Notes: generated from the letters alone by a model not told the origin. 64,000 bases of DNA from Chloroflexota bacterium (GCA_036834125.1 DAITOK010000005.1:6331-70330); one strand, 5' to 3'. Counted from the stretch's first letter, positions 3,569-54,196 are shown. Made by a program: numbers and translations.

Positions 3569-5782
3569 CTAGCTCGATTTCCCTCTACTAGCTGCTGGTA
3601 TATACATTCGCTTGATATATTCCTTAAGCATCCGTCGGGTGCAGAATATGGGAGAAATTGAGGCTATTGCCTCTTTGACCATGCGCATCCAACCGCGAGG
3701 CACACCATCTCTATCCCGTTGGTAGTAAAGGGGTACAATTTCCTGCTCTAGGAGACGGTAAAGTGCCTCGGCATCCGAGCTATCTTCCTTCCCTGGGTCA
3801 TACGCTTCAATGTCGTCTCCGATAACCCAGCCATTCATGCCATTATAGCCTTCATACCACCAGCCATCTCTAACGCTGAGATGAAGGACACCGTTCACTG
3901 TTGCCTTCATACCACTGGTGCCACAAGCCTCTTGTAAGCGGCGAGGCGTGTTCAGCCATACGTCTACTCCTTGAACCAGATAACGAGCCATATGCATATC
4001 ATAATCTTCTACAAAGGCTATTCGGCCTTGGAATTCAGGCTGTGTACTCAGGGTATATACCTCATGGAGGAGTTGCTTTGAAGGAAAGTCGGCGGGATGA
4101 GACTTTCCGGCAAAGATGATTTGGACAGGCTGCCATCTATCGGTGACAATGCGCTTAAGACGTTCAACGTCGTGGAAAATCAATGCTGGTCGCTTATATT
4201 CAGTGAATCGGCGGACAAAACCGATAGTGAGAACATTGGGATTAAGTAGAGCACCCATAGCCAATATCTGCCTGGCTCGGCACTCACGTTCAGTAGCGCA
4301 TTGGCGTGCTCGCTCTATCATGGCACCGATAAGCTTGCGTTTAAGGGCCTGATGCACTTCCCAAAGCTCCTTGTCTGGGATTTTTAGTACAAGTTCCCGA
4401 AGGCTAGTATCATCGTACCTTTGGAATATATCCTGGCCTAGGTATTTCTCATAGATACGGCTCATCTCCGGAGCAACCCAAGTCGGCACATGAATCCCGT
4501 TAGTAATATGTGAGATGGGGACCTCCTCTTCTTTAAGTTTGGGCCAGAGTCCGTGCCACATCCTTCTCGTGATTTTTCCATGAATCTGGCTAACAGCGTT
4601 ACGATGGTCAGACATTCTTAAGGCAAATACAGTCATATTGAAGGCTTGGTCATATGTGCCACTTTGTCGTCCTAGCTCTAGAAATGTTTCTCGGTTTATG
4701 CCCATAGATTCCCAGTAGCTAGAAAGATATTTCTCGACAAGCGTGATAGGAAAGACATCGTGTCCGGCAGGGGTTGGCGTATGGGTAGTGAATACGGTGG
4801 TTGCTCTAACTCTGTGCAGAGCTTCGGTGAAGCTCGCGCCTTTTTCTATTTCTGTCCTGAGACGCTCCAGCATCATGAAGGCGCTGTGGCCTTCGTTGGC
4901 ATGCCACACAGAAGGATTGATGCCTAGTGTCTGTAAGACACGCACTCCGCCAACTCCTAGTACAATTTCTTGCTGGATACGCTGCTCCTGATCAGCGGTG
5001 TAGAGGCGAGCGCATAACTGTCTATCTTGAAAGCTGTTTCCCTCAACGTCGCAACAGAGAAGGTAGAGGTTGGTCCGCCCTACGCGTACTTGCCAGACAC
5101 CAATGTAGAAAGGTCTACCGCCCAGTTCCGTCTTAACTAACGGTCTGCACCACTTAGAGTGCGGAACTGGATTGATAGGAGTGATGGGCGCTTCATCGAA
5201 ATTTAATTGTTCATAAATTTCCTCTTGCCAGCCGTCAGCGGAAATATGTTGATGGAAGTATCCTTGGGGATACATGAAGCCAACACCGACCAGAGGCAGC
5301 CCCAAATCGCTCGCTTCTTTACAGACATCGCCCGCCAGGATGCCCAGACCGCCGGCATAGAGAGGGAGAGAGTTGTGTATGGCAAATTCCATAGAGAAGT
5401 AGGCAACAGGACCAGGCAAAGCCTCAGGGTATTTTGTAGCAAACCAAGTATTCTTTGCTTTAATGTCGGCGTCAAAATCTGCCATCACGGAATCGTACAA
5501 ACTAAGAAACGCAGGGTCTTTCGCCGCTGCTTCTAGCCTGTCAGGACTGATTTCGTGAAGCTCTTTGACCGGGTTGTGTCCCCCTAAGTGCCATAGTGGA
5601 TAATCCAGAGCCCGGAACAAAGCTCGGGCTTGAGGGTGCCAGCTCCACCACAGATTGTTAGCTAGTTCCTCTAACCTGTTTACGCGCTCAGGGAGCTTCA
5701 GTGGTGATGACATAGTACCATTGCCAGGCTTTTGTCTCAGATTTCCTTTGCTCGCTACGAAAGCATCGTCAACTTTTGTCAA
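3569..5782 (-). CDS. glgP: Alpha-glucan (glycogen/maltodextrin) phosphorylase, GT35, short ~715-aa form
   Basis: 737-aa ORF. Conserved GT35/PLP-enzyme blocks: EGHSAF, TNGIH, FTTHTP, GKSHPAD. The track start at 5782 is a TTG; the first ATG is at 5713 (MSSPLKLPERVNRLEELANNLWWSWHP), so the start is uncertain. Confidence 0.85.
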   Translation of the reverse strand: MTKVDDAFVASKGNLRQKPGNGTMSSPLKLPERVNRLEELANNLWWSWHPQARALFRALDYPLWHLGGHNPVKELHEISPDRLEAAAKDPAFLSLYDSVMADFDADIKAKNTWFATKYPEALPGPVAYFSMEFAIHNSLPLYAGGLGILAGDVCKEASDLGLPLVGVGFMYPQGYFHQHISADGWQEEIYEQLNFDEAPITPINPVPHSKWCRPLVKTELGGRPFYIGVWQVRVGRTNLYLLCCDVEGNSFQDRQLCARLYTADQEQRIQQEIVLGVGGVRVLQTLGINPSVWHANEGHSAFMMLERLRTEIEKGASFTEALHRVRATTVFTTHTPTPAGHDVFPITLVEKYLSSYWESMGINRETFLELGRQSGTYDQAFNMTVFALRMSDHRNAVSQIHGKITRRMWHGLWPKLKEEEVPISHITNGIHVPTWVAPEMSRIYEKYLGQDIFQRYDDTSLRELVLKIPDKELWEVHQALKRKLIGAMIERARQCATERECRARQILAMGALLNPNVLTIGFVRRFTEYKRPALIFHDVERLKRIVTDRWQPVQIIFAGKSHPADFPSKQLLHEVYTLSTQPEFQGRIAFVEDYDMHMARYLVQGVDVWLNTPRRLQEACGTSGMKATVNGVLHLSVRDGWWYEGYNGMNGWVIGDDIEAYDPGKEDSSDAEALYRLLEQEIVPLYYQRDRDGVPRGWMRMVKEAIASISPIFCTRRMLKEYIKRMYIPAASRGKSS

Positions 5783-7120: not shown

Positions 7121-8416
7121 TTATTGTGTGAATAGTATGTCTTCCAGTTTGTTTCTGATATCCCGGGCATCTAGGGTACGCTGATAGCACTCGCGTTTTA
7201 GTTTTTCGCTTACTCCGCTCTTATTTATAGCCCGGTAGGCGTTAACTATTGTTCGTAGTTGCTCAAGCAGACCCATATAGATGAGGTTGATGTCCCACAT
7301 AGGGCGCTTGCTTGCCCACCACATTTGGCAGCTATGCTCAGCACGATCTAAAAGTCCCCGGGCTATAGCAGCAGAGCGACGGCTCTCGTCGTCGTCGGCA
7401 TACTCCAGCGCTTTGTTGACCAGTTCAATGCAGATGTTCAGATGTTCCCACTGCAGACGATGTACTTCGTTATTTCTGTCTTGCCAGAGTGGGTAATAGT
7501 TGCCAGCTTTTATGTCATGGACAGTGGTGCTCCAGGAAGAGGGCTTGGGCTCTATAGCTGGTCCTCTTGCGAAAAGACCGAGGAGTTCGCTTACAGTAAC
7601 CATGCGGATTTTGGCAGCAGCCTCGCCATTGGTCAGCAAAGAAGCATGTTGTCCGGCTAGCACTGTAGCTTGCTGGAGTTCAGAAACAGGTGCTGGCCAG
7701 GATTCAAGCTGTTGATAAACCTTGGCTAGAAATATCCTCTCCCAGCCTTGGATATGATGTCCGTAAGTTTCAGCATCCATAGCTGTGACTACATAGATGT
7801 TGTTCTTGTTGCCTTGCCACTGCTCCAGATGGGCGATGAATTCTTTCGCCTCTACATTGCGGAAACTTATCCTGTTGCTAAGTACATCATCTCGGAAAAA
7901 AACTGCTATCTTTTGACCGTCGCATTCTATCTGGTAAATGATATCTAGGGGCCACTCTGCCGGGCAGGCAATGCCACTGAGTATAATCCAGCGATAACCT
8001 GCTTCTACAACAGGTTTCAGAATATCTCGGCTGTAGCCCATCTCGGGGGGAAAGAAACCCTGGGGAGCATATACTTCGCCAAAAAAGTGGCGGTTAGTTT
8101 GTGTGTTGAGGTCTATTTGCCTTTTCATCTCCTGCCTAGGTATCAAGGGCAGAATAGGGTGATACTTACCCGTTGCCGTGAATTCAATCTGACCCTTATG
8201 GGCAAGATTTCTGAAGCCCTCAATAATATCCCTGTGTCCGCAGTCCATGAGCATATCGGTGAGCACGCCATTGAAATTGACGGTTACCCGAGCGTTGGGA
8301 TACTCTTCAAAGACTCGGAGCAAAGGTCGGTACGATTCGTCACAAATCTTTTTGAGTATTGAAGACGTCTGAGTTGGCGGCTGATAAAAATGCAATAGCT
8401 GAGCCCAGTAGATCAT
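7121..8416 (-). CDS. Glycoside hydrolase family 57 protein (alpha-amylase / branching-enzyme-like)
   Basis: 431-aa ORF; ATG with GGAGG RBS. N-terminus MIYWAQLLHFYQPPTQ carries the GH57 signature HFYQP, and the downstream catalytic region fits GH57. Confidence 0.85.
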   Translation of the reverse strand: MIYWAQLLHFYQPPTQTSSILKKICDESYRPLLRVFEEYPNARVTVNFNGVLTDMLMDCGHRDIIEGFRNLAHKGQIEFTATGKYHPILPLIPRQEMKRQIDLNTQTNRHFFGEVYAPQGFFPPEMGYSRDILKPVVEAGYRWIILSGIACPAEWPLDIIYQIECDGQKIAVFFRDDVLSNRISFRNVEAKEFIAHLEQWQGNKNNIYVVTAMDAETYGHHIQGWERIFLAKVYQQLESWPAPVSELQQATVLAGQHASLLTNGEAAAKIRMVTVSELLGLFARGPAIEPKPSSWSTTVHDIKAGNYYPLWQDRNNEVHRLQWEHLNICIELVNKALEYADDDESRRSAAIARGLLDRAEHSCQMWWASKRPMWDINLIYMGLLEQLRTIVNAYRAINKSGVSEKLKRECYQRTLDARDIRNKLEDILFTQ

Positions 8417-8599
8417 AGGAACCTCCGAGTGAAAGTGTTGTGCCGCTGATTCAAGGAAACTGACACCGACAAATCGGGACTATTGTAGCATATGACCTGG
8501 CTGCCATTGTAAGTTCTCCAATGTGTTTTATTCGGATCCCCCACCATGTTTGTGTTATGTCCCAAAGTGGTTGCGAACACGGATCAAAGACAAGACTCA

Positions 8600-8622
8600 C
8601 AGGCCCGATCTATCGGGGCCTG
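8600..8622 (-). terminator. GC-rich hairpin (CAGGCCC...GGGGCCTG) downstream of the decayed lipoprotein gene
   Basis: Inverted repeat read directly; T-rich tract on the minus strand after the stem. Confidence 0.4.
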
Positions 8623-8631
8623 TAAGTAAGC

Positions 8632-9390
8632 TTAACCATACCTCCGCCTGACGAGCGGAAGTAGGGGAAAGCTTAAATTTAGAGTCCAGTCACCGACATC
8701 GCACTGCCCCTCGTTGTTGCGCCCTACTGCAACTACAATGCCGTCTGATACAAGTCCTACTGTATGATATCCACCGGCAGCGACCATCGGTATGACTGCA
8801 AAGTTGGCGGTGACGGTTACATCCTCGCCGGGCATGGTGAAAATAGTTTCAGCTGCATTGGGGTCATCAAACTCACCAGCAGGCGCTGACCAACAAAATG
8901 GTAATCCTGTTAGGTGTTGCTTTTATGCTAACTAGTGCCCCTTCAGGGTAGGGACCGGCATTTGTTTGGTCGGTAGCTGTTCCACTGCCGGGGGAAACAC
9001 AGCCATGTTCAGCTTATAGGTTGGCGCTATCGCCTTGAACTGGGCAGTAATTTCATAGTTATCCTGCATATCAATGACGGTCTCGGGGTTGGTCACACCA
9101 TTTACGGGTGCGCCTAGCCACTTTTCAAATTCGTATCCTTGACTAGGACTGGCTGCCAGATTCACATCTGTACCTGCCGGAATGCTTGGTATGGTCTTCG
9201 TTTGACCTGGACCAACTACTGTTTCTTCCCCGTTGACCGTGACAATGGCCGAACCTCCCGGGTGCAGGAAATGGTGAGGTCATACGGAAGAGGCTCACCC
9301 GGACTGGGACATGGACTGGGGCTGGATTGACAGCCTGTCATCGCTACAATCAACACAGTTGCGATTAGGAAGGCGCTCACTCTTTTTCAT
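8632..9390 (-). pseudogene. Decayed lipoprotein gene: lipobox signal, InlB B-repeat (Listeria-Bacteroides repeat) and one RCC1-like repeat, broken by at least 3 frameshifts
   Basis: ATG at 9390 with GGAGGAG RBS gives MKKSER, then a stop after 31 aa. A +1 frame gives FLIATVLIVAMTGCQSSPSP (lipobox) and an InlB-type B-repeat start (PLPYDLTISCT...). Another frame (8932-9165) gives GYEFEKWLGAPVNGVTNPETVIDMQDNYEITAQFK, an InlB B-repeat. Another (8632-8835) gives GGYHTVGLVSDGIVVAVGRNNEGQCDV, a single RCC1 repeat. Confidence 0.65.
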
Positions 9391-9882
9391 GTATTGTCTC
9401 CTCCTTTCGTAGTTTTTCACATGCTTCACAAACCTCTAGAGATTTGCTCTCGCCAATATGTTCGAATATCCTCAGTCTTATTTATAGCACAACCTTATTC
9501 GGCGTTAATCACCCGCTGGTAATGGGAAAACTAGTTACGCTGTTTTCTACCATGCGTCATAGGAGTTGCTACCATGTAAACCTCGCTATTCTGCATGTAT
9601 GAGAATATAAGAGGAGTAGTGTTCTCCGCATGGTCACTGTCTAACGATGAACAAGTCTTACCAGCGCTTTTGGACATCAATCAAGGGACGGAAGTACCGG
9701 CTTTGTAGCGACGCGAAGTGAACAATTGGTGAGTTAAGTACTAGCCAGATAGTTAGCTGAAGGCCGGTCCGAACTACGGGTTCGATTCGAGTTAAACTTC
9801 GGATTTCGGGGCGCTTGCAGCAAGAAGCTGAATCTGGCGGGTGCTCATCACAGATAAGCCCAGCACATTGGCAAGTTTCAAG

Positions 9883-11556
9883 CTAACTTATTCTGCCAAA
9901 TTCCTTCTCCAGTTGATGGGAGCTTAAATGTATCATGGTCGGTCGTCCATGTGGACATGTCCGTGGCTGCTTGGTTTGCTCCAGTTGCTTCAATAGCTCT
10001 CGCATCTCTTCGTGACTTAGCTGCTGCCCGGCTCTGATAGCACCGTGGCATACCAATGATTGGGCTATCTTTTCTTCCCAGGGATTAAGACTTTCCTTGC
10101 TGGATAGGCTATCAAGTAGCAGAGTTATTATCTCGATGACGTTGGTGTTAGCGATCAGCGCTGGCACAGCGCGTATCAGACAGCTTCTATTCCCAAAGAG
10201 TTCAATTTCGAAGCCGAATTCGGCCAGGCGTTCTTGGCTAGCTTTCAGGGTCTCTTCCTCTCTGGGGCTAAGCTCTATAGTCGCTGGCTGGAGCAAGCCC
10301 TGGACTTCTACTTTCTTTTGTGACCACTGCGTCAAGATGCGGTCATAAAGTATGCGCTCATGGGCGGCGTGCTGGTCAATGAGATATAGTCCATCGGGTC
10401 CCTCAGCGATAATGTAAGTATTGGCTAGCTGTCCTAACACCCGCAGAACTGGCAGTTCTAAGATTGGTAACTGGGAAACAGCGAAAATTGGCTCGTTGTC
10501 CTTGATCAGTCGCGGACTTTGCCATGAATCTGAGTTGAGTGAAAAAGCTACCGTTTTGGAGCTAGCTACAGGCGCGACAACCAATGCTTCCTCTAGGGCT
10601 TTTTGGACATTTCTGAATACAACTTGTTCGTGGCAAAACTTTATCTGAGCCTTGGCGGGATGAATGTTCACGTCAAGCTCCTGAGGCGGTAAGGAGATAT
10701 CAAGTACCGTGACAGGATATTGACCATTCGTGAGTAAGCCATGGTAGGCTTCTTCGGTGGCTCGAGTCAGTAGGGGGCTGTGCACCCACCTGCGGTTGAC
10801 AAAGAAGCTGAGATAACTGCGATTGGAGCGGGTCAACGAAGGAGGACTGGTCAAGCCGACGATTTCGACTAAGCTATCCTTTTGCTCGACCTTCAGCATC
10901 CTTTGTGCTACCTCGGAACCGTATATTTCGCCGACTACGTCGCGTAAGTTACCGTTGCCGAATGTGCGCAGGTTATGGCGTCTATCAAGAATTAGGCTGA
11001 ACTTAACCTCAGGAAAAGCCAGTGCGTATTGGCTTACGAGGTGGGCGATGTGGCTATTCTCAGTGCTTGCCGACTTGAGAAATTTGAGCCGTGCTGGGAG
11101 GTAGCGGAACAAACGTCGCACAGTTACAGTGGTGCCTGAAGGTCGCGCTTGACTCTCCTTGCGAACTATCTCACCCTTTCTCAAATGCAGGTAGCTGCCT
11201 ACAGTTTCTGATGGTGTTCGGGTTATGATTTCCACTTCGGCAACGGCAGCAATGCTGGGTAGGGCTTCACCACGGAAACCCAGGCTTGATATTTTCTCCA
11301 ACTCTTCCAAACTGGAAATCTTGCTTGTGGCATGTCTATGAAAAGCCAGCTCCACCTCTGAGGCCGGAATGCCGGCTCCGTTATCACTCACCCTGATCAG
11401 CTCCACTCCGCCGCCTTGAGTTTCTACAACAATTTCGGTAGCTTCAGCATCCAAGGAGTTCTCGATAAGTTCCTTGACCACTGAGGCTGGCCTTTCCACC
11501 ACCTCGCCAGCGGCGATCTTGGAAATTAACTCAGGCGTTAAGACCTTAATAGGCAT
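9883..11556 (-). CDS. mutL: DNA mismatch repair protein MutL
   Basis: 557-aa ORF with ATG start. N-terminal GHKL ATPase motifs (PIKVLTPELISKIAAGEVVERPASVVKELIENSLDA, DNGAGI) and a C-terminal dimerisation domain. Confidence 0.92.
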   Translation of the reverse strand: MPIKVLTPELISKIAAGEVVERPASVVKELIENSLDAEATEIVVETQGGGVELIRVSDNGAGIPASEVELAFHRHATSKISSLEELEKISSLGFRGEALPSIAAVAEVEIITRTPSETVGSYLHLRKGEIVRKESQARPSGTTVTVRRLFRYLPARLKFLKSASTENSHIAHLVSQYALAFPEVKFSLILDRRHNLRTFGNGNLRDVVGEIYGSEVAQRMLKVEQKDSLVEIVGLTSPPSLTRSNRSYLSFFVNRRWVHSPLLTRATEEAYHGLLTNGQYPVTVLDISLPPQELDVNIHPAKAQIKFCHEQVVFRNVQKALEEALVVAPVASSKTVAFSLNSDSWQSPRLIKDNEPIFAVSQLPILELPVLRVLGQLANTYIIAEGPDGLYLIDQHAAHERILYDRILTQWSQKKVEVQGLLQPATIELSPREEETLKASQERLAEFGFEIELFGNRSCLIRAVPALIANTNVIEIITLLLDSLSSKESLNPWEEKIAQSLVCHGAIRAGQQLSHEEMRELLKQLEQTKQPRTCPHGRPTMIHLSSHQLEKEFGRIS

Positions 11557-50530: not shown

Positions 50531-51025
50531 TTAGCTCGTGGTAAAAAACTCACGGATGGAATCGAATTCTGCAGGCAAAAGAGCCAGCAACAACGGGAAT
50601 TCCTGCACTAGGAACCTAGCTATTGCCGATTGACTGATGACACTGACCGAGCCTGGGTAATACTTCAATACAATAGCGAGAAAGGCAGCGCAGAACAGGG
50701 CTCCCACAGCGATACCGAAGACAAACCCCAGAAGCCTATCGAGCCAGCCAAGTGCCGCGAAATGTACTGCCTTAGCCACGAGCCAACCGACCACGCCAGC
50801 GACAATGAGAGTAGCTATTACAATAATGGCATATGCAGCTATCTTAGCCCAGGTGGCACCACTGGTAGAGAGCAGTGCTGCCAGCGGCTCATAATAGCAC
50901 CCTGCTAGAATTATGCCAATTATTAACCCGGCGATGCCGAACGCTGTCCGAATAATTCCTTGTCGCAAGCCACCAAAGCCCAACACCACTGCCACAATTA
51001 TTATGACTATATCCAACCAATTCAT
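50531..51025 (-). CDS. cvpA: CvpA-family membrane protein
   Basis: MNWLDIVIIIVAVVLGFGGLRQGIIRTAFGIAGLIIGIILAG with 4 TM helices. Confidence 0.75.
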   Translation of the reverse strand: MNWLDIVIIIVAVVLGFGGLRQGIIRTAFGIAGLIIGIILAGCYYEPLAALLSTSGATWAKIAAYAIIVIATLIVAGVVGWLVAKAVHFAALGWLDRLLGFVFGIAVGALFCAAFLAIVLKYYPGSVSVISQSAIARFLVQEFPLLLALLPAEFDSIREFFTTS

Positions 51026-51036
51026 TGCTTGCCTCT

Positions 51037-51381
51037 CTAGTTCTTTAGTTTGTTCCAGACCCTTGAAATCTTTAGTTTAAGGTCAGGTAAATCCTCTTTA
51101 ATAATCAGCCAGACTCTTTTTAAATTGGCACCAAAGTATTCATGAGTGAGAATATCTCTCATTCCGGCGATCTTTTTCCAAGGTATGTCGGCATATTGAC
51201 CTTTAAAATTTTCATCCATCTTTTTGGCTGCTTCGCCGATGATTTCGAGCCTTCTCAGAACTGCATCTTGAACCCGGCGTGTCTTGTAAAATTTCTCTTC
51301 TGTGAGTGCCTGCATGTATTCCTCTATCGCTTAAATGCTTTCTAGCATGTCCTTTACATACAACCTCATATCCCGTTTCAT
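51037..51381 (-). pseudogene. hepT: HepT-family (DUF86/HEPN) toxin gene with an in-frame TAA at codon 17
   Basis: From ATG 51381: MKRDMRLYVKDMLESI-TAA (51333-51331)-AIEEYMQALTEEKF...RDILTHEY. The last block is an Rx4-6H HEPN motif. The stop sits where K/E/Q is expected in the ILEAIxKIEEY consensus. The track reports only the re-start ORF 51037-51315. Confidence 0.7.
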
Positions 51382-51670
51382 AGGATGACCACTTCTTCGT
51401 TCAGTATCCTCTCCCTGATGAGCGGTTTAATTGTGCTGTATTCCACCAAATCAATACTTTTGCCCAACGCCTCCTCGAGCTCAATCTTTAAAGCGGCAAA
51501 ATCAAGCAGACTCAGGTCGTTGTTGATTTCTACCAAAATATCTATATCACTATCAGCTGTAGCCTCACCTTTCGTAACTGAGCCAAAAGGGCGGCTCTCT
51601 CGACACCATGCCGTTTGAGTATGGGAATAGCTTTGTTTTTTATTTCGTGTATTTGCTTCTGCGAAATCAT
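51378..51670 (-). pseudogene. mnt: MNT (minimal nucleotidyltransferase) antitoxin gene with a -1 frameshift in an A4/T4 run (51585-51588)
   Basis: From ATG 51670 (GAGG RBS): MISQKQIHEIKNKAIPILKRHGVERAAL, then a stop in that frame after 14 more codons. The adjacent frame continues GSVTKGEATADSDIDILVEINNDLSLLDFAALKIELEEALGKSIDLVEYSTIKPLIRERILNEEVVIL-TGA. That is the GS...DxD NTase motif, and the TGA overlaps the HepT ATG (ATGA). Confidence 0.7.
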
Positions 51671-51758
51671 TTACCGCCTCGAACGAAAAATTGCCTATAG
51701 GACGCCCTGACTGCTATTTCCTTCTAACATTTTGTATTTCATGCTCTTGTTATAGCAC

Positions 51759-53114: not shown

Positions 53115-54196
53115 TGCCACGCCCTCAATCGTCTGAAGGCTTCGAGCTTTTCCTTATCGCCAATTTTGGTTTTCTCCAGTGCCTGCGCCAGGAACTGGAT
53201 GCTGCTGTCGTAGGTCTTCCTGTCCACAGGGTAGGGATACCCATCCTTGCCGCCGTGGGCAAAGCTGTAGCTCGCAGGGTCACGAAGGCTGACCGGTGTG
53301 TCATAAATGAGTTCAGAAATGAGGCTCAGGGCTCGCAAGGTTTTTGGTCCTACACCCTCCAGGGCGAGCAAAGATTCAAAGTTCTCAGGCTTGCGCTCGT
53401 AGGTGGTGACGAAAATCTTGCTCAGCCTGTCGGGATGAATATCTTCCAGGCTGATATGAGCCCGCCGGGGCAAGTTTAGGGTCTTGAGCTTACTTAACTC
53501 GTTGACGATTTTCTCGGGCTTCTCCTCGCTGGCAATACGGGTGATGACATCCCTGGCTTGGGCGCTCTCCGAAGCTACCAGATTCAATGCCTCACCTCTA
53601 GCCTGTGTGCAGATAGCTGCCTCTGGCTCGCAGACGAAGTCCGTGACACTCTCTCCCAGCCAGTGGTAGCGCCGGGCATAGCGGTTGCTCTCGTTCATAC
53701 CCTGCTGGACCACTGCCCAGTAGCCATCTTTAGTGAAGAAGAAGCTGTGGTGATAGAGCTGGTAGCCATCCTGAAGGGCGGAATTATCCACCTTGGCGGA
53801 CATCCGACTAGCATAGACTAGCGATGAAGGATTTATCTTGAGCAAGTGCCCGGCATTCTCTATCTCCTGAGGCGTTTTTCGAGAGGTTTTGCCTTTGCCA
53901 CCCGCCACAAACAAGCCCAGCTCCTTTTCCAGCCCTCGGAGTCCCTCTTTCAGTGCTCCACAGACGGTGGTGGTCACGCCGCTCGAATGCCAGTCATAGC
54001 CTAAAACGCAACCGAAAGCCTGAAACCAGTAGGGGTCGGATAGCCGCCTCAGCATCTCCTGGACGCCAAATTCCATCATGGTGGCGATGGCGATCTCCCG
54101 GGCAAGCTGGCACATCCGCCCGAATAGCCACGGTGGCACCTTGCCATAATGCAGAGGCAGATTAGCAACCCCCGTCCTCTGTCCTGAGCTAGCCAT
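53111..54196 (-). CDS. DUF763-like protein with helix-hairpin-helix motif
   Basis: LLALEGVGPKTLRALSLISELIY (HhH), plus HGGKDGYPYPVDRKTYD, which I recall as DUF763-type. First ATG at 54196; the track TTG start is at 54274. Confidence 0.5.
   Translation of the reverse strand: MASSGQRTGVANLPLHYGKVPPWLFGRMCQLAREIAIATMMEFGVQEMLRRLSDPYWFQAFGCVLGYDWHSSGVTTTVCGALKEGLRGLEKELGLFVAGGKGKTSRKTPQEIENAGHLLKINPSSLVYASRMSAKVDNSALQDGYQLYHHSFFFTKDGYWAVVQQGMNESNRYARRYHWLGESVTDFVCEPEAAICTQARGEALNLVASESAQARDVITRIASEEKPEKIVNELSKLKTLNLPRRAHISLEDIHPDRLSKIFVTTYERKPENFESLLALEGVGPKTLRALSLISELIYDTPVSLRDPASYSFAHGGKDGYPYPVDRKTYDSSIQFLAQALEKTKIGDKEKLEAFRRLRAWQ

Follow-up and report, generated by a model that had tools for sequence, protein, structure and literature searches.

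A toxin-antitoxin module of type VII (HepT/MntA), probably recently pseudogenised, upstream of cvpA in an uncultured Dehalococcoidia bacterium

In the window, i.e. the whole 64,000-nt stretch of DNA that was analysed, the remnants of a HepT toxin gene and of an MNT (MntA) antitoxin gene lay side by side on the minus strand, between a gene of the PD-(D/E)XK nuclease family and cvpA. The features of the locus are given below in window coordinates, L numbers denoting the loci and contigs used for comparison.

50531..51025, minus strand: cvpA (Colicin V production family; PF02674, E = 1.7e-27, and synteny), directly downstream of the module and co-oriented with it
51037..51039, minus strand: TAG at HepT codon 115, the position of a CGG, TTG or TGG in orthologues
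51037..51315, minus strand: residual 92-aa ORF starting at HepT Met23, called as a gene in public assemblies
51037..51381, minus strand: pseudogene of the HepT toxin, with 114 codons before the TAG
51136..51159, minus strand: RX4HXY motif of HepT (R75 DILT H80 E Y82), comprising the RNase active site and the tyrosine
51331..51333, minus strand: premature TAA at HepT codon 17, a G>T change where orthologues have GAA (Glu)
51378..51381, minus strand: ATGA joining the MNT stop (TGA) and the HepT start (ATG), a translational coupling signal conserved in L003, L008 and L085
51378..51670, minus strand: pseudogene of the MNT/MntA antitoxin, which a 1-nt deficit splits into a 42-aa ORF and a 52-aa ORF and which would have 97 codons after repair
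51540..51584, minus strand: GSX10DXD nucleotidyltransferase motif of MNT (G30 S31 x10 D42 I D44), which is read in the frame that follows the shift
51582..51591, minus strand: frameshift site, GCC CTTTT GGC, where orthologues have GCG ATT TTT GGC; the exact base lost is not assignable
51671..51758, minus strand: spacer of 88 nt between the PD-(D/E)XK gene and MNT, ~51 nt shorter than in L008 and L085
51759..53120, minus strand: PD-(D/E)XK nuclease-family gene (PF12705, E = 3.8e-07), forming the upstream edge of a variable slot

The HepT remnant read MKRDMRLYVKDMLESI, the TAA, then AIEEYMQALTEEKF...RDILTHEYFG...NKLKN and the TAG (51039..51037). Past this TAG, the ancestral HepT frame continued in the window with AGA GGC AAG CAA TGA to 51022, its stop overlapping the cvpA ATG. 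Syntenic orthologues encoded a HepT five codons longer, with R-G-(E/K)-Q at its end and a TGA lying over the cvpA ATG. The codon-115 TAG was common to the window and L004, and translational coupling between HepT and cvpA is predicted to be broken here as well.

MNT starts with the ATG at 51670, from which translation of the minus strand gave MISQKQIHEIKNKAIPILKRHGVERAAL in the first frame. The remainder of the protein, FGSVTKGEATADSDIDILVE...EEVVIL and a stop, reads one base back from the start frame, which is also the frame of the homologous MNT continuation FGSVTKGEATADSDIDILVEINNDLSLLDFAALKIELEEALGKSIDLVEYSTIKPLIRERILNEEVVIL and its stop. The two frames join at GCC GCC-CTTTT-GGC, where the T4 of the minus strand corresponds to A4 at 51585-51588 on the plus strand, and the gene is one base short at CCCTTTTGG. 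The mntA frameshift thus precedes its catalytic motif. Repair of the frame takes a one-base insertion in the DNA, for which the equivalent at the ribosome is a -1 slip, not a +1 slip. The 88-nt spacer had none of the upstream copy of the cvpA-5' direct repeat found in L008 and L085, and a search of it for promoter-like or terminator-like sites found none.

Once repaired, both proteins matched the expected Pfam families, which rules out a chance resemblance: MNT matched PF18765 (E = 4.5e-17) and PF01909 (E = 2.3e-15), and HepT matched PF01934, 'Ribonuclease HepT-like' (E = 6.7e-29; 3.6e-25 for the 92-aa ORF alone). Against the PDB, MNT matched 1WOT (E = 3.5e-16, residues 13-94). A phmmer search of the PDB with the single repaired HepT gave no match at E<=1e-3, and a profile of 16 HepT sequences matched the Shewanella oneidensis HepT entries 5YEP_B, 6M6U and 6M6W, LRNIAVHDY of 5YEP_B being the counterpart of the RX4HXY region in the alignment. 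The AlphaFold model of P0001, the closest intact HepT homologue (83% identical), had a pLDDT of 87.7 and helices at residues 5-23, 28-31, 35-54, 57-62, 68-75 and 87-115, so that the TAA at codon 17 falls within predicted helix 1 (residues 5-23). In a Foldseek search of the PDB with this model, the top 22 matches were all HepT toxins of solved HepT/MntA systems (TM 0.57-0.70). No HepT or MNT paralogue was found elsewhere within the 64 kb; a second intact HepT/MntA pair is possible elsewhere in the genome, of which one contig was viewed.

The HepT/MntA pair is defined by GSX10DXD in the antitoxin and RX4HXY in the toxin (Yao et al. 2020, PMC7641770), and both motifs were exact in the remnants. 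The features of a Class I type VII module (PF01934 + PF01909) were present, namely a HEPN domain with RX4HXY, a minimal nucleotidyltransferase with GSX10DXD, and adjacent genes in one operon with the antitoxin first (ATGA, and the same order in orthologues), and neither protein had an uninterrupted frame. By these sequence criteria, the module would belong to type VII HepT/MntA by descent, but as a pseudogene.

An earlier note, made from the sequence of the window, had described a HepT/MNT module there with both catalytic motifs and the ATGA coupling retained and with a TAA at HepT codon 17. The Pfam matches, the PDB profile and 1WOT matches and the fold search with the orthologue bear out the identity, and the R75-x4-H80-x-Y82 and G30 S31 x10 D42 I D44 motifs, the ATGA (51381..51378) and the TAA (51333..51331) were all found where they had been placed. 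Its coordinates were likewise all correct, except that what it took for the end of HepT at 51037 is an additional TAG lesion, which it had overlooked. The +1 shift that it proposed in the A4 run holds for a one-base insertion repairing the DNA but not for the ribosome, which would need to slip by -1.

Intact copies of the module were found in six orthologous loci (L003, L008 and L085-L088; L008 is JACAEN010000020.1, a Chloroflexota MAG of the GTDB genomes), in the order DUF763, PD-(D/E)XK, MNT (97 aa), HepT (119 aa), cvpA, thioredoxin and tatD. In L003, HepT (4168-4527) overlaps cvpA (4524-5012). In L043, MNT-HepT also lies directly upstream of cvpA, with the MNT match starting from residue 7 and the PD-(D/E)XK side outside the view. 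The HepT remnant was 78-83% identical to the intact syntenic orthologues and the MNT remnant 73-79%; among intact relatives of 113-119 aa, HepT identity reached 83%, identity of MNT to intact relatives of 97 aa was 74-79%, and a search of 5.8 billion protein clusters gave no intact HepT closer than that. Alignment to intact homologues, the check that had been proposed with the earlier description, placed the orthologues in frame, with GAA (Glu) at HepT codon 17 against TAA in the window and GCA GCG ATT TTT GGC (AAIFGS) at the MNT site against GCC GCC CTTTT GGC. As the orthologous HepT stop lies over the cvpA ATG, the ancestral unit would have been a triple translationally coupled string of mntA, ATGA, hepT, (A/G)TGA and cvpA.

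The relatives identified by cvpA were all Dehalococcoidia, Dehalococcoidales or Chloroflexota MAGs among the matches listed, the best cvpA match being 74% among the 80 GTDB species-representative loci listed, which do not include the species of the window. Going by the labels of these cvpA relatives alone, the host is an uncultured Dehalococcoidia bacterium. In another part of the window (8416-9883), 1.5 kb carried no long ORF and may be another broken gene; its short ORFs, of 67 and 77 aa on the minus strand, by eye resemble pieces of surface proteins with repeat domains.

Three contigs from other assemblies were compared with the window: L001 (ENA ERZ27245459, a k141 contig of 75.9 kb), L002 (ENA ERZ1744544, a SPAdes NODE of 13 kb) and L004 (JGI 3300010288, 12.6 kb). 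In an alignment of 757 nt that took in the TAA and the T4, L001 and L002 showed 100% identity with the window, and L004 shared the TAA and the T4 run, its position 1 corresponding to window 51588, exactly at the T4. At other positions, 8 (L001), 18 (L002) and 2 (L004) differences from the window were counted (99.8-99.97% identity), so these contigs are not copies of it. With an identity of at least 99.8%, the four assemblies are close to clonal, and lesions described as fixed are fixed in the sampled population, not in a diverse species. The 92-aa residual ORF was recorded in NCBI, JGI, ENA and Logan assemblies. Two exact-pattern scans of the metagenome_contigs collection for T5 or GAA alleles, one anchored upstream of the T-run and one across codon 17, gave no match; as they did not retrieve even the known JGI contig, that collection did not contain these contigs.

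Two side observations concern these contigs. L004 may end at the T4 run by chance, or because strain variation immediately before it made the assembly graph branch. Almost all differences of L001 and L002 from the window lay in a ~85-nt patch of the DUF763 gene (minus strand; difference positions at window 53271-53354 and 54131-54143), many of them 3 nt apart, as if a diverged allele had contributed a short tract by recombination.

Because identical lesions recurred in separate samples, they are not sequencing or assembly errors, and we give practically no credence to genes that are intact in the organism and broken only in the data. Some platforms do make single-base homopolymer errors, and a contig that stops right at the T4 might point to a local assembly problem; but the window, L001 and L002, which are identical across both lesions, were obtained from different samples with different assemblers (k141_, NODE_), L004 adds a further TAA and T4, and the contigs vary from the window elsewhere. 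Moreover, short-read data are not error-prone at a 4-nt run, and a G>T substitution is no homopolymer artefact. The claim that both genes are inactivated was upheld, the TAA being present in all three other assemblies and the frameshift in both of those that span its site, and the A5 run with a sense codon at 51331-51333, by which the earlier note would have recognised intact genes, did not appear in the other assemblies. That note had also left room for programmed frameshifting or phase variation at the homopolymer. MntA would then be made by -1 frameshifting or transcriptional slippage at the T4, and HepT by readthrough of the TAA, yielding a switchable module; a -1 slip after CTT would give AAL-FGS, matching the family consensus, and the ATGA coupling is unbroken. 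Against this, the zero-frame C CTT TTG does not fit the X XXY YYZ pattern of a slippery heptamer, and the 111 nt from 11 nt upstream to ~95 nt downstream of the site folded with an MFE of -26.3 kcal/mol (z = -0.65), a value equalled or bettered by 50 of 200 shuffles, which leaves no stimulatory downstream RNA structure. A 4-nt run is far shorter than the lengths known to slip, and instead of a long variable tract as in phase variation, its length was invariant in the window, L001 and L002, with T4 in L004 as well. MNT was in frame in the six orthologous loci and in the closest database homologues aligned, and every HepT orthologue had GAA at codon 17. Reassignment of the stop is contradicted by the ordinary use of TAA in the window, where it terminates 13 of 34 long ORFs, more than any other stop, and no Rfam family or tRNA was found in the window. 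Since each of the two partners has been hit independently of the other, we regard programmed expression as very unlikely.

The comparison with intact genes pointed to a short time since inactivation. Pairwise dN/dS between the window and intact orthologues was 0.12-0.21 for MNT and 0.06-0.09 for HepT, compared to 0.13-0.23 and 0.08-0.12, respectively, between intact orthologues. At columns conserved in at least 90% of homologues, the HepT remnant deviated in 3 of 52 and the MNT remnant in 2 of 47; 29 of 117 HepT homologues and 51 of 118 MNT homologues deviated at least as much, and the remnants were thus no outliers. Neither measure (dN/dS or conserved-site deviations) gave a relaxed-selection signal, both having values like those of intact genes, which means that nearly all of the divergence arose under purifying selection and that inactivation was recent. 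The missing signal is best read as the mark of recent inactivation and not as evidence of function, and it supports the recent decay that had been proposed from the intact ATGA. Over 6.5 kb, the window and L004 differed only at 51048 and 51051, both of them nonsynonymous positions at the hepT 3' end, where the window has NKLKN and L004 has NEIKN, the latter agreeing with the EEIK of orthologues at both residues. Such changes have the expected look of drift after inactivation, and the adjacent pair may be a single event.

Part of the module could nevertheless have stayed in use, either through expression of the 92-aa HepT from Met23 or because the dead module is kept for the transcription or translation signals of cvpA. 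A plausible Shine-Dalgarno sequence, GAGG, lies at 51321-51324, 5 nt upstream of the Met23 ATG, the 92-aa ORF keeps RX4HXY, and gene callers predict it. For cvpA, there were no terminator-like sites between the PD-(D/E)XK gene and cvpA, the deletion relics of four relatives described below (L011, L014, L007 and L015) all retain the last ~30 nt of the module as a cvpA leader, and the relic junction of L014 fits a sigma-70 pattern (TTGAGC-16-TATGAT; L014:3947-3974) 27 nt before cvpA. This promoter match is however weak, with 2 found against 1.0 expected, the GAGG is merely conserved coding sequence for IEEY, and both post-inactivation changes in the 92-aa ORF are nonsynonymous. The 92-aa product would also be without helix 1 (residues 5-23) of the helical bundle and without an antitoxin; it is presumably inactive, since selection should act against an active RNase that lacks its antitoxin. 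Partial function is improbable.

The stretch that separates the PD-(D/E)XK gene from cvpA varies among the about 35 related genomes that retain both. The slot is absent in more distant relatives, in which the PD-(D/E)XK stop overlaps the cvpA start (L017, L019, L024, L026, L038). In four others, a slot of 91-98 nt looks empty, and is an MNT-HepT deletion relic whose alignment scored above all 200 shuffles (L011:3909-4001, L014:3908-4001, L007:3902-4001, L015:946-1038). These short relics comprise the last ~18 codons of MNT (KTIRPLIKERILSEQVVIL followed by two stops), the ATGA, and the HepT tail KIKDWRGEQ with its stop running into cvpA. Three further slots (L035, L016, L036) look like more eroded relics by translation alone, their alignment scores not exceeding those of shuffles. 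With intact copies and relics occupying one position, HepT/MntA would be ancestral to a sub-clade and repeatedly eroded in it, the window representing the earliest stage seen. The same slot also housed other genes: a HicA toxin (E = 1.2e-18), its small partner lying upstream, and an MNT C-terminal relic in L023 (3329-4004), an MNT N-terminal relic beside radical-SAM and PNPOx-like genes in L032 (2280-3997), and other cassettes in L010, L022, L009, L013, L030, L029 and L031, with ABM, metallo-beta-lactamase-fold, AMP-binding or GNAT genes among the contents of other genomes. Gene turnover appears to have a local hotspot in this slot.

Direct repeats of 60-65 nt flank the intact MNT-HepT in L008 (3261-3320 and 3976-4035) and L085 (4907-4971 and 5622-5686). 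They are 87% and 80% identical, respectively, lie 715 nt apart, and correspond to the cvpA leader and its first ~11 codons, a configuration that looks like an insertion footprint. In L003 (2933-2994), an ABM gene and a methyltransferase gene have between them 14 nt copied from the cvpA start, directly next to a 48-nt copy of the PD-(D/E)XK 3' end (73% identical), an arrangement which suggests that cassettes were added through junction duplication, by a circular fragment with a single crossover or by tandem duplication. A search for junction duplications in the other genomes returned only L008, L085 and L003. The direct repeats of L008 and L085 and the abutting junction copies of L003 are the grounds for a wider reading, in which the gap between PD-(D/E)XK and cvpA is a cassette-capture hotspot of a Dehalococcoidia clade, with junction-duplicating entry, and in which the remnant is partly kept as a cvpA expression leader; we consider this rather unlikely. 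If it were true, HepT/MntA, HicA-type pairs and ABM, PNPOx, radical-SAM and GNAT genes would be the cassettes, and the window an early snapshot of slot turnover.

Overall, the locus is best explained, with a probability of about 0.9, as a recently pseudogenised chromosomal type VII HepT/MntA (HEPN/MNT) module in an uncultured Dehalococcoidia bacterium, the lesions inactivating the module doubly, arguably triply, in a case of ordinary toxin-antitoxin decay. In intact systems elsewhere, HepT is an RX4H RNase that cleaves mRNA, and MntA uses its GSX10DXD site to oligo-AMPylate the RX4HXY tyrosine of HepT, which neutralises the toxin. Starting from an ancestral module between the PD-(D/E)XK nuclease gene and cvpA, a G>T change turned hepT codon 17 into TAA, the loss of one base at CTTTT(T)GG frameshifted mntA ahead of its catalytic motif, and hepT codon 115 became TAG. 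The toxin lesion presumably came first or together with that of the antitoxin, because loss of the antitoxin alone should be harmful. As a result, neither a functional toxin nor a functional antitoxin would be made. The remnant probably persists because the time since inactivation has been too short for its deletion, and its 3' end would bear the ribosome-binding site of cvpA.

As a family of toxin-antitoxin systems, HepT/MntA ranks with the most abundant, and pseudogenes of toxin-antitoxin systems are common. The value of the locus is modest: it offers a dated example of a loss pathway, in which each partner was hit by a point lesion and the remaining sequence still looks selected, and in sister lineages the same chromosomal position is taken by intact copies and by deletion relics. 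In practice, the public 92-aa 'HepT-like' gene call should be flagged as a pseudogene fragment.

Among the closest known systems is HepT/MntA of S. oneidensis (SO_3166/SO_3165; PDB 5YEP, 6M6U, 6M6W, 7BXO), the prototype of type VII (PMC7641770). Here as there, mntA lies upstream of hepT, the pair is PF01909/PF01934 'Class I', and GSX10DXD and RX4HXY are exact; the fold of the 83%-identical orthologue also resembles that of S. oneidensis HepT (TM 0.64-0.66). Unlike in S. oneidensis, both window genes are disrupted, the module is coupled to and within a cvpA operon, and the proteins have 97 and 114-119 aa compared to a HepT chain of ~139 aa, with ~18% identity to solved HepT. The closest solved relative of the MNT remnant is PDB 1WOT, a 'putative minimal nucleotidyltransferase' of the same length class (98 aa), which differs in being intact, from another organism and in an entry that names no partner toxin. 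The same HEPN fold (TM 0.6-0.7) occurs in the HEPN/MNT entries 7AE2, 7AE6, 7AE8 and 7AE9 (mono- and di-AMPylated HEPN toxin with MNT), a system from Aphanizomenon flos-aquae (Songailiene et al. 2020). Neutralisation by AMPylation would be expected, by analogy, to be alike in the two; identity is 12-15%, and the genes of that system are intact and experimentally characterised. Close counterparts are also the loci L008, L085-L088 and L003, which like the window carry the module between the PD-(D/E)XK gene and cvpA, but in frame, with GAA at codon 17 and a 119-aa HepT overlapping the cvpA start, and of which L008 and L085 retain the 60-65-nt direct repeat that was lost in the window.
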